Shown: positions 6,767-11,458, counted from the first letter of the stretch. The stretch is 24,000 bases of DNA from an uncultured Chloroflexia bacterium (GCA_963700595.1 CAVOYE010000022.1:119033-143032); one strand, 5' to 3'. The notes: generated by a model not told the origin, from the letters alone. Made by a program: numbers and translations.

Positions 6767-6933
6767 GGTTTGAAGTAGTGACTTCGGCGCTGTAGTACAG
6801 CGCATCTATCTTCGTGCGGATAGCGGTTAAAACCTCTACTACGAACATGATAGTTAGCTTTGAGTGATGCCTTTTAATCCAGAAAATTCTTTACTTGATG
6901 CCTGTGGGGCGAATGATTATTCGCCCCTACAAT
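6767..6933 (+). repeat. Copy A of a conserved structured non-coding element (candidate small RNA or REP/MITE-like repeat)
   Basis: It aligns with 11305-11458 in the same orientation. Shared blocks are GTTTG-AGTAG, CTATC-n8-GATAGCG, CTACTACGAAC, and a hairpin GGGGCGAA-tgatta-TTCGCCCC at 6906-6927. There is no U tail and no conserved ORF. Confidence 0.5.
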
Positions 6934-7006
6934 ATTAAAAAAATGTGCTGCAGTCCTTTGCTTCCTGAAGGTTGACGAAACCGGCTCTTTCAGGTATCCT
7001 TCATCT

Positions 7007-10940: not shown

Positions 10941-11015
10941 CGGGGCGTGGCCCAGCTTGGCTAGGGCGCTACAATGGGGTTGTAGAGGTCGACGGTTCAA
11001 ATCCGTCCGCCCCGA
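10941..11015 (+). tRNA. tRNA-Pro: tRNA-Pro, anticodon GGG; CCA is not encoded
   Basis: The cloverleaf was folded by hand. The acceptor stem is CGGGGCG/CGCCCCG and the D stem is GCCC/GGGC. The anticodon stem is CTACA/TGTAG with loop A-T-GGG-G-T (U33 and G37 present). The variable loop is AGGTC. The T arm is GACGG-TTCAAAT-CCGTC, and the discriminator is A. Confidence 0.9.
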
Positions 11016-11019
11016 CTGA

Positions 11020-11080
11020 ATCGGGTACGGCAGTGGATTTTTGTAAGTTGAAAGTCAATTGCCGTACCCGATTTTTGTTT
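11020..11080 (+). terminator. Long hairpin with a T-tract downstream of tRNA-Pro; probable intrinsic terminator
   Basis: ATCGGGTACGGCA (11020-11032) pairs perfectly (13 bp) with TGCCGTACCCGAT (11060-11072) and is followed by TTTTGTTT. The 27-nt loop is unusually large. Confidence 0.55.
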
Positions 11081-11304: not shown

Positions 11305-11458
11305 CGTTTGTAGTAGAAACTTTAGTTTCTATCTGCGGGCGGATAGCGACTAAAGTCACTACTACGAACGGATCGGAAAACTTCACATGTCGTACTTTTG
11401 TGCTTATTTTCCTTAAGTTGCCGTGCAGAGGGCGAATGGGTGTTCGCCCCTAAGCAAT
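11305..11458 (+). repeat. Copy B of the conserved structured non-coding element
   Basis: A 12-bp closing helix forms between CGTTTGTAGTAG (11305-11316) and CTACTACGAACG (11359-11370). Inside it are the helix ACTTTA/TAAAGT and the hairpin CTATC-tgcgggcg-GATAG (11329-11346). The 3' hairpin is GGGCGAA-tgggtg-TTCGCCC (11430-11449). Confidence 0.5.

Follow-up and report, generated by a model that had tools for sequence, protein, structure and literature searches.

What is the element that stands twice, as copies A and B, in the window (the whole 24,000-nt stretch of DNA from an uncultured Chloroflexia bacterium that we analyzed), and does its fold belong to an RNA gene or to repeat DNA? The copies align at 74% over ~270 nt and have in common a 42-nt block and a 23-nt block, both offset by 4523 nt. 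The initial annotation read the element as a closed multi-helix domain in which the differences between copies preserve the pairing, and offered two explanations, a trans-acting small RNA (sRNA) and a REP-like element recognized by a protein. Its argument that a riboswitch is unlikely at copy B, where the next gene is convergent, is sound. When we re-read the sequence, the individual helices were all recovered. In copy B, all 12 positions of 11305-11316 find a partner in 11359-11370, one of them as a T.G pair, and the equivalent strands of copy A, 6767-6778 (GGTTTGAAGTAG) and 6836-6847, pair at 10 of 12. Both copies contain the hairpin CTATC-n8-GATAG (11329-11346 in copy B), and the second arm is present as ACTTTA/TAAAGT in copy B (11319-11324 and 11351-11356) and as the separate hairpin GCGCTGT-agt-ACAGCGC in copy A (Table 1).

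The core of the element is two inverted head-and-hairpin units

Sorting all occurrences of GTTTGTAG in the genome, together with all heads, revealed the unit to which these helices belong. A unit of this type, which we call family 1, consists of an 11-nt head, GTT[T/C]GTAGTA[G/A], and then an 8-bp hairpin whose loop is TT or TC. The hairpin is laid out as TA[G/A]-N4-T, the loop, and A-N4-[C/T]TA, usually with TC next, and the last three bases of the head pair into the unit stem. Units with at least 7 of 8 pairs number 36, compared to 6 of 561 control heads. The core of each copy is two units, heads outward, around a short spacer that is itself the CTATC...GATAG hairpin. What had been described as a 12-bp closing helix is the two inverted heads facing one another, and the inner helices are the two unit hairpins and the spacer hairpin. 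Full head-to-head doublets occur 17-19 times in the genome. The mini-hairpin module nested in copy A (GCGCTG-AGTA-CAGCGC) recurs in at least 10 other cores, in some copies in tandem, and GCGCTG-n3-5-CAGCGC is found at 29 sites genome-wide.

Table 1. Coordinates of the repeat features in the window and of Y1-type transposase genes elsewhere in the genome (prefixed by contig)
Feature	Position	Strand	Details
Copy A core, REPIN-like head-to-head doublet	6768..6846		left head GTTTGAAGTAG to right head CTACTACGAAC; nhmmer E = 6e-19
Copy A left head, GTTTGAAGTAG	6768..6778	+	one mismatch to GTTYGTAGTAG; own hairpin broken by nested mini-hairpin
Copy A nested mini-hairpin, GCGCTGT-AGT-ACAGCGC	6787..6803		module of longer ("type 2") cores
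Copy A central spacer hairpin, CTATC-n8-GATAG	6806..6823		between the two REP units
Copy A right REP unit	6821..6846	-	head GTTCGTAGTAG; hairpin TAGAGGTT-TT-AACCGCTA, 7/8 paired
Conserved linker ("arm")	6850..6901	-	nhmmer armA E = 3e-8; ~20-21 genome sites
Copy A family-2 REP	6906..6934	-	head (T)TGTAG at 6928-6934; 8-bp hairpin GGGGCGAAT/ATTCGCCCC at 6906-6927
Conserved promoter of tlyA-like gene, TTGACG-17-TATCCT	6972..7000	+	outside repeat; right edge of inserted DNA
Copy B core, head-to-head doublet	11306..11369		folds as one long hairpin; nhmmer E = 6e-17
Copy B left REP unit	11306..11331	+	head GTTTGTAGTAG; hairpin TAGAAACT-TT-AGTTTCTA, 8/8 paired
Copy B right REP unit	11344..11369	-	head GTTCGTAGTAG; hairpin TAGTGACT-TT-AGTCGCTA, 8/8 paired, one T.G
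Copy B family-2 REP	11430..11455	-	decayed head CTTAG instead of GTAG; stem GGGCGAA/TTCGCCC; hairpin 11430-11449
IS200-like gene	C4:106977		flanked by CCGG...ATTTAT...CCGG hairpins
RAYT gene	C3:112528-113037		NF047646, 99 bits (cut-off 80); intact; followed by eight 77-nt tandem units starting GTTTGTAG-CCTAGCCCC
RAYT gene	C3:218.9-219.7k		92 bits; flanked by GCCGCACTGGGGTGCGGC hairpins

Unit stems covary, and the outer helix does not

Both copies folded better than shuffled sequences. The 166-nt copy B fold had z = -5.6 and the 181-nt copy A fold z = -3.1, while the copy B core by itself reached z = -10.1 (+ strand) and -7.7 (- strand) as RNA, and -6.4 and -5.3 as DNA. The closed multi-helix domain was only partly recovered. 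Copy A can form a closed four-way junction, but as + strand RNA only and marginally so (z = -2.0; 8 of 200 shuffles were as good), and its best fold as DNA, or on the - strand, lacks the outer helix. Copy B is predicted to be a single rod-like hairpin of 28 bp in three coaxial segments, with no multi-helix junction. When one stem sequence is common to both units of a doublet, the whole core becomes a rod; copy B and C22:175920 are examples. Where the unit stems differ, as in copy A and at C22:786470, only local hairpins and the head-head stem are possible, which gives the junction shape.

Among 41 distinct units, 92.7% of stem cells were paired, compared to 70.5 +/- 1.5% in column shuffles, which retain the column make-up (maximum 74.7% in 1000 shuffles); the absolute value is inflated because units were chosen at 6 or more of 8 pairs. 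Slid registers of the same units were 23-36% paired. Double (compensatory) changes were present in seven of the eight stem pairs (among them G-C/A-T at pair 3 and C-G/A-T at pair 4). Thus, the proposal that copy differences preserve pairing holds for the two small unit hairpins, but not for the 12-bp outer helix, where the heads are nearly invariant among 19 doublets and show no covariation. Head position 4 is a T/C polymorphism that is independent in the two heads: across the 19 doublets, its pairs are T-A in 10, T.G in 4, C.A in 2, and C-G in 2. Since this variation is uncoordinated, the conserved T.G pair, which had been taken as weakly favoring a plus-strand transcript, is uninformative on the transcribed strand. 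The unit stems do carry a bias, as on the head-bearing strand G.T pairs outnumbered A.C pairs by 14 to 5 (P = 0.06), or by 10 to 2 with a stricter filter (P = 0.04), under a selection rule that treats G.T and A.C alike. This excess weakly supports folding of the head-bearing strand when it is single-stranded, with DNA and RNA not told apart.

The element is dispersed between genes

The genome that contains the window comprises 6.5 Mb on 22 contigs and is 93% complete. Using BLAST and three rounds of nhmmer, we found 33 core sites on nine contigs, in both orientations, with ~22 at full length and 11 truncated. A pattern search for one unit returned 34 head-plus-hairpin units, compared to 0-1 for the reversed control. 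At ~33 sites and ~40 units, the copy number is low for a REP family. All but one of the 33 core sites lie outside ORFs, although ORFs make up 84% of the genome (P ~1e-24). Placement of these 32 sites is uneven, with 17 in tandem, 10 in convergent, and 5 in divergent spacers, such that convergent spacers are enriched (10 of 32, compared to 13% genome-wide; P = 0.007).

Copy A could be compared with orthologous DNA, as the gene order rluD-tlyA-lepA-AI-2E is kept across the genus. The rluD-tlyA spacer is 322 nt in this genome and 34-63 nt in six of nine congeners; in the other three congeners it is about 160, 274, and 377 nt, and the 377-nt spacer contains a different GC-rich repeat. The tlyA promoter (TTGACGAAACC...GGTATCCT) is retained nearly base for base in nine congeners, just 5' of the start codon. 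Judged by the short congener spacers and the retained promoter, the DNA of copy A is an addition, placed after the rluD-like stop codon and before the tlyA promoter, and the orthologous sites show the presence and absence that characterize mobile elements. That the element moves is suggested by congeners that are only ~70% identical rather than by strain-level empty sites, so the timing of insertion is coarse. Copy B lies after tRNA-Pro, where congener synteny breaks.

Two other features of these spacers deserve mention. In the congener G017 (L043:2032-2429), the rluD-tlyA spacer contains about four unrelated GC-rich repeats (GGGGCTGCCGCG...GACGCCCC...GCTGTAAGCG); within the genus, repeat insertion has a hot spot here. 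In the window, a 23-bp inverted repeat (11019-11073; 87% complementary, 9-nt loop) directly follows tRNA-Pro(GGG) and looks like the tRNA terminator.

Each copy joins two REP families

The family-1 core is connected by a linker of ~55-60 nt to a hairpin of a second family. Family 2, GGGCGAAT-n4-ATTCGCCC, has 37 sites in the genome, and at 21 of them a tag, xTAG (GTAG in 20), lies directly 5' of the stem in one orientation. The internal spacing of copies A and B is identical because two REP types in fixed orientation are joined by a conserved linker. Thus, each element of 155-170 nt is a mosaic like the BIMEs of E. coli, in which two REP types also stand in fixed relative orientation with a conserved linker between them, although the sequences are unrelated. 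Over 144 nt, copy A matches G000:C5:156149-156292 at 94% identity. A further mosaic module, CTTAACTTGATGCC-hairpin-CATCAAGTTAAG, gave 74 nhmmer matches, both strands counted. Hairpins of the form ATTCCC-n8-GGGAAT, which occur at 50 sites (e.g., C21:1940-1985 and C20:417690-417740) and are often joined to the CTTAACTTGATGCC linker, are another module of the same mosaic repeat network.

On the - strand of contig C3 (G000:C3:122467-122748; L233:467-748), there is a 93-aa, N-terminally truncated RAYT-like ORF that starts MPNHVHF and contains WQ and YIQTNP. GTAG-GGGCGAAT...ATTCGCCC REPs, which are family 2, stand at its flanks, and the ORF is probably the decayed cognate gene of that family.

Units of the same class flank RAYT genes in other phyla

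We scanned one genome per species for the doublet pattern GTTTGTAGTAG-N38-68-CTACTACRAAC. The pattern occurred at 119 or more loci, compared to ~4 expected by chance (by our own arithmetic), and the matches listed included Poribacteria (many), Chloroflexota/Anaerolineales, Ca. Parabeggiatoa, heterocystous cyanobacteria, Verrucomicrobiota, Lentisphaerae, and Abditibacterium. Units elsewhere follow the same plan, a head, a 5-7 bp stem of varied sequence (GGCAAT, GCGCT, GGCGAT, and others), and a TC or TT loop, with at least 40 distinct stems across phyla. A hairpin with 5 bp or more and a loop of TC or TT follows the head in 75 of 88, 38 of 44, and 28 of 41 units, compared to 13% of random positions. 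Heads outnumbered the reversed control by 2140 to 18 in Ca. Parabeggiatoa (8.5 Mb genome), 201 to 17 in Stigonema, 142 to 3 in an Anaerolineales MAG, 99 to 15 in Poribacteria, and 31 to 12 in this genome.

In three of these groups, the units surround RAYT genes. A 205-aa RAYT of Poribacteria (L091:2075-2692; NF047646, 90.5 bits) has family-1-class doublets within 50 nt upstream and 8 nt downstream, and the RAYT genes of the Anaerolineales MAG (L204) and Ca. Parabeggiatoa (L217) lie between arrays of family-1-class units. The three proteins are 47-58% identical to one another across phyla, compared to 20-33% to the RAYTs of this genome, and have NHYH, W[YH], and YIHYNP motifs, a proline-rich N-terminus, and a length of ~200 aa. 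By these motifs, rather than by profile or tree, the clade appears to match subclass 2.8 of the TnpA-REP proteins, which has the same motifs, proline-rich N-terminal region, length, and flanking GT[AG]G REPs (Quentin et al., 2018; PMC6006769). That study described eight cyanobacterial members with canonical GT[AG]G REPs at their flanks and mentioned relatives in other phyla without detail; the flanked genes found here are instead in Poribacteria, Ca. Parabeggiatoa, and Chloroflexota. The RAYTs of Stigonema and Verrucomicrobiota with the best family scores had no family-1 head at their flanks. The Ca. Parabeggiatoa RAYT (L217:856-2001, - strand) is fused to a C-terminal Uma2 domain (PF05685, a putative restriction endonuclease), for a total of 381 aa.

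A sample of 120 genomes from the order of this genome contained 21 with a homologue of these RAYTs. For 9 of the 12 same-order homologues that we fetched, a head was present within 700 nt and mostly within 100 nt, and some of the flanks bear the very stem of this genome, CGACTTTAGTCG. We scored a genome as having head excess if it had 20 or more heads and no fewer than three times the control. Such an excess was found in 9 of 16 genomes with a strong RAYT homologue, compared to 14 of 105 without (Fisher P = 4e-4; the genomes are kin and not independent). That many MAGs of the order show the excess with no RAYT detected counts against the link.

We regard as evenly balanced the wider proposal that the GTTYGTAGTAG head, with a stem of free sequence and a TY loop, serves one RAYT clade (subclass 2.8-like) as its conserved substrate signature, that the clade and its REPs have spread among at least three phyla in which these REPs flank the genes (Poribacteria, Chloroflexota, and Gammaproteobacteria), and that many Anaerolineae-type genomes, including this one, keep orphan REPINs after loss of the gene. 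The REP signature alone extends to further groups, including cyanobacteria and Verrucomicrobiota. If true, the proposal would mean horizontal spread of a REPIN-RAYT pair, a pair usually described as vertically inherited.

Transposase genes in this genome

The initial annotation had suggested looking for a RAYT or IS200-type gene that could act on the hairpins. There are four Y1-type genes in the genome (three in Table 1, and the truncated ORF at C3:122467-122748), but none has family-1 units at its flanks. The REPs of the intact RAYT at C3:112528-113037 have the 8-nt head GTTTGTAG in common with family 1, while their hairpin is different. Related tandem REP arrays, with periods of 77 nt and ~102 nt and the sequence GTTTGTAG-[C/T]CTAGCCCCT[T/C]GTGGGCG, are at C3:113054-113700 (L032:1925-2570, directly after the RAYT), C21:28620-29133, C11:250697-250932, and C2:4929-5163.

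Using tblastn, we found no RAYT of the cognate, subclass-2.8-like clade in this assembly, the best match being an other-clade RAYT at 32% identity. Because of this, the linkage that defines a REP-RAYT pair, a RAYT flanked by the same REP, is absent here. Repeats are often left unassembled, and since the genome is only 93% complete, the gene may be among the missing sequence. In five REP-carrying congeners, whose contigs are short, no RAYT gene was flanked by a family-1 head. Head-carrying congeners without a subclass-2.8-like gene were G016, G003, and G005 in the 120-genome order sample, and G003 and G033 in the RAYT search.

The copies are best explained as REP mosaics, most likely orphaned

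We conclude that copies A and B are very probably BIME-like mosaics of two GTAG-tagged families of REPs (repetitive extragenic palindromes), in which the core is a REPIN, and that they are units of a kind that RAYTs would mobilize. Of the explanations first offered, the REP-like one has stood: these are dispersed extragenic palindromes with GTAG heads whose relatives adjoin RAYT genes. How such units could move is suggested by analogy with E. coli TnpA-REP and IS200/IS605. A RAYT (an HUH/Y1 REP-associated tyrosine transposase) would bind the folded unit in single-stranded DNA, contacting the bases of the GTAG head and recognizing the stem by its shape, and would then cut the unit and rejoin it nearby, with the doublet as the unit that gets copied. 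The mechanism is modeled on E. coli TnpA-REP and its relatives (PMC3479197, PMC8266576, PMC3116915), and the binding and cutting of folded single-stranded REPs were shown for other RAYT groups only (PMC8266576, PMC3479197). If RAYTs read the head and the shape of the hairpin, as we propose, this would be why the stem sequence drifts while the pairing stays.

Given ~33 partly decayed sites and no RAYT of the clade in the assembly, the likeliest reading is that the RAYT of these copies was lost or went unassembled, which makes them orphans, or that another RAYT moves them rarely. A small, partly truncated population without a cognate gene fits decay after RAYT loss. From the similarity of the heads, rare cross-mobilization by the RAYT at C3:112.5k may also occur, as its REPs have the same 8-nt head.

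Alternative explanations

A structured trans-acting sRNA gene, present in two or more paralogous copies, would be in keeping with the strong predicted folds, the compensatory changes between copies, and the preference for G.T over A.C on the head-bearing strand. However, neither region matched an RNA family: at both gathering and permissive thresholds, the only Rfam matches were tRNA-Pro(GGG) at 10941-11016 and chance miRNA-like matches. Neither copy is bracketed by its own promoter and terminator, and the 3' hairpin is without a T-run on both strands. Copy B folds nearly equally well on both strands, and the outer helix is without covariation. The number of sites (33, in both orientations, with 11 truncated) and the missing element in the orthologous spacer of 6 of 9 congeners also argue against such a gene, and we consider it exceedingly improbable that the copies are sRNAs. 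It is also very unlikely, on the evidence that follows, that the element, as a MITE ending in terminal inverted repeats of 11 bp, owes its movement to a DDE transposase such as one of the IS630 family, which is the mover of the MITE Nezha in cyanobacteria. Terminal inverted repeats do exist, and a DDE_3 gene (G000:C11:202384-203403; PF13358, 66 bits) lies between left and right heads. But this insert splits one REP hairpin exactly in its loop (CGACT/insert/TCAGTCG); therefore the IS sits in a REP and the heads are not its own, and we rejected an IS630-like parent element on this ground. Moreover, the C11 DDE gene is single copy, there is no target-site duplication at the core ends, and the units also occur singly and in tandem arrays. 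In three phyla, this REP class flanks RAYT genes and not DDE genes. As for the insert itself (G000:C11:202281-203420; L232:382-1521), it is a single-copy, IS630-like DDE_3 gene of 339 aa within a family-1 loop (GTTTGTAGTAGCGACT, insert, TCAGTCGCTATCC), with a reading frame that continues open into the REP and lacks an ATG where the insert begins on the left, and may be a REP-targeting IS or a truncated IS.

An explanation compatible with REP mosaics is that the REPs were co-opted, either as 3'-UTR RNA hairpins that would stabilize the mRNA upstream of them or block read-through, or as DNA to which nucleoid proteins bind. Such roles are reported for E. coli BIMEs. Placement agrees with such a role, as 27 of 32 sites are in tandem and convergent spacers, that is, after genes, with convergent spacers enriched, and copy A follows the rluD-like stop codon and precedes the tlyA promoter; the bias of G.T over A.C points the same way. 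The same features were noted for GTAG REPs by Di Nocera et al. (PMC3733652). Nonetheless, the hairpins are not T-run terminators, and purifying selection against insertions into genes and promoters would give the same placement. We view co-option as rather unlikely, and any RNA-level effect, such as that of hairpins in 3' UTRs, would be secondary to the identity of the copies as mosaics of two REP families.

Relation to known REP systems

Both families fit the description of GTAG-tagged REPs, short imperfect palindromes of 20-40 nt with GT[AG]G at the 5' foot, and family 1 also displays extragenic repetition and complementary stem changes. The resemblance to GTAG-tagged REPs (Di Nocera, De Gregorio and Rocco, 2013; PMC3733652) extends to a stem of 6-9 bp with the GTAG tag at its 5' foot, loops that are very short and fit TY, G.T pairs, sub-families whose stems differ by complementary changes, head-head dimers with 20-100 bp between them, placement in tandem and convergent spacers, and several families per genome. 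Family 1 differs in that its conserved head is 11 nt (GTTYGTAGTAG), with the last three bases in the stem. This string was not found in the text or supplements of PMC3733652 or in the text of PMC3116915, and may appear in their figures. A full-text literature search for the head returned unrelated primer sequences only.

The core consists of two inverted REPs and a short spacer and is predicted to form a single hairpin, as a REPIN does. It resembles the REPINs of Bertels and Rainey (2011; PMC3116915) in that the inverted doublet and its spacer make one long hairpin when DNA or RNA is single-stranded, in that the doublet is the most frequent arrangement, and in that the cognate RAYT is flanked by the same REPs, here in other genomes. 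Unlike that system, there is no cognate RAYT in this assembly and the population is small and partly truncated. Moreover, while REPIN-RAYT pairs are described as mainly vertically inherited (PMC3116915), the family-1 class is present in several phyla.

For the window, the reading as a multi-helix RNA domain was a false lead. Being a REP doublet, the element calls for annotation as repeat DNA rather than as an sRNA or riboswitch; it belongs to an ordinary bacterial repeat class and is no new RNA gene. While the biology of the element is ordinary, the wider REP-RAYT pattern is a modest side lead. To our knowledge, work on REPs and RAYTs has been almost confined to Proteobacteria. Our analysis adds a well-defined REP class for groups that have received little study (Anaerolineae-type Chloroflexota, Poribacteria, and large sulfur bacteria), and this class offers a simple searchable signature and a candidate cognate transposase clade. 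It also opens to test how a RAYT reads a long head together with a stem recognized by shape alone, and whether REPIN populations decay after their RAYT is lost.
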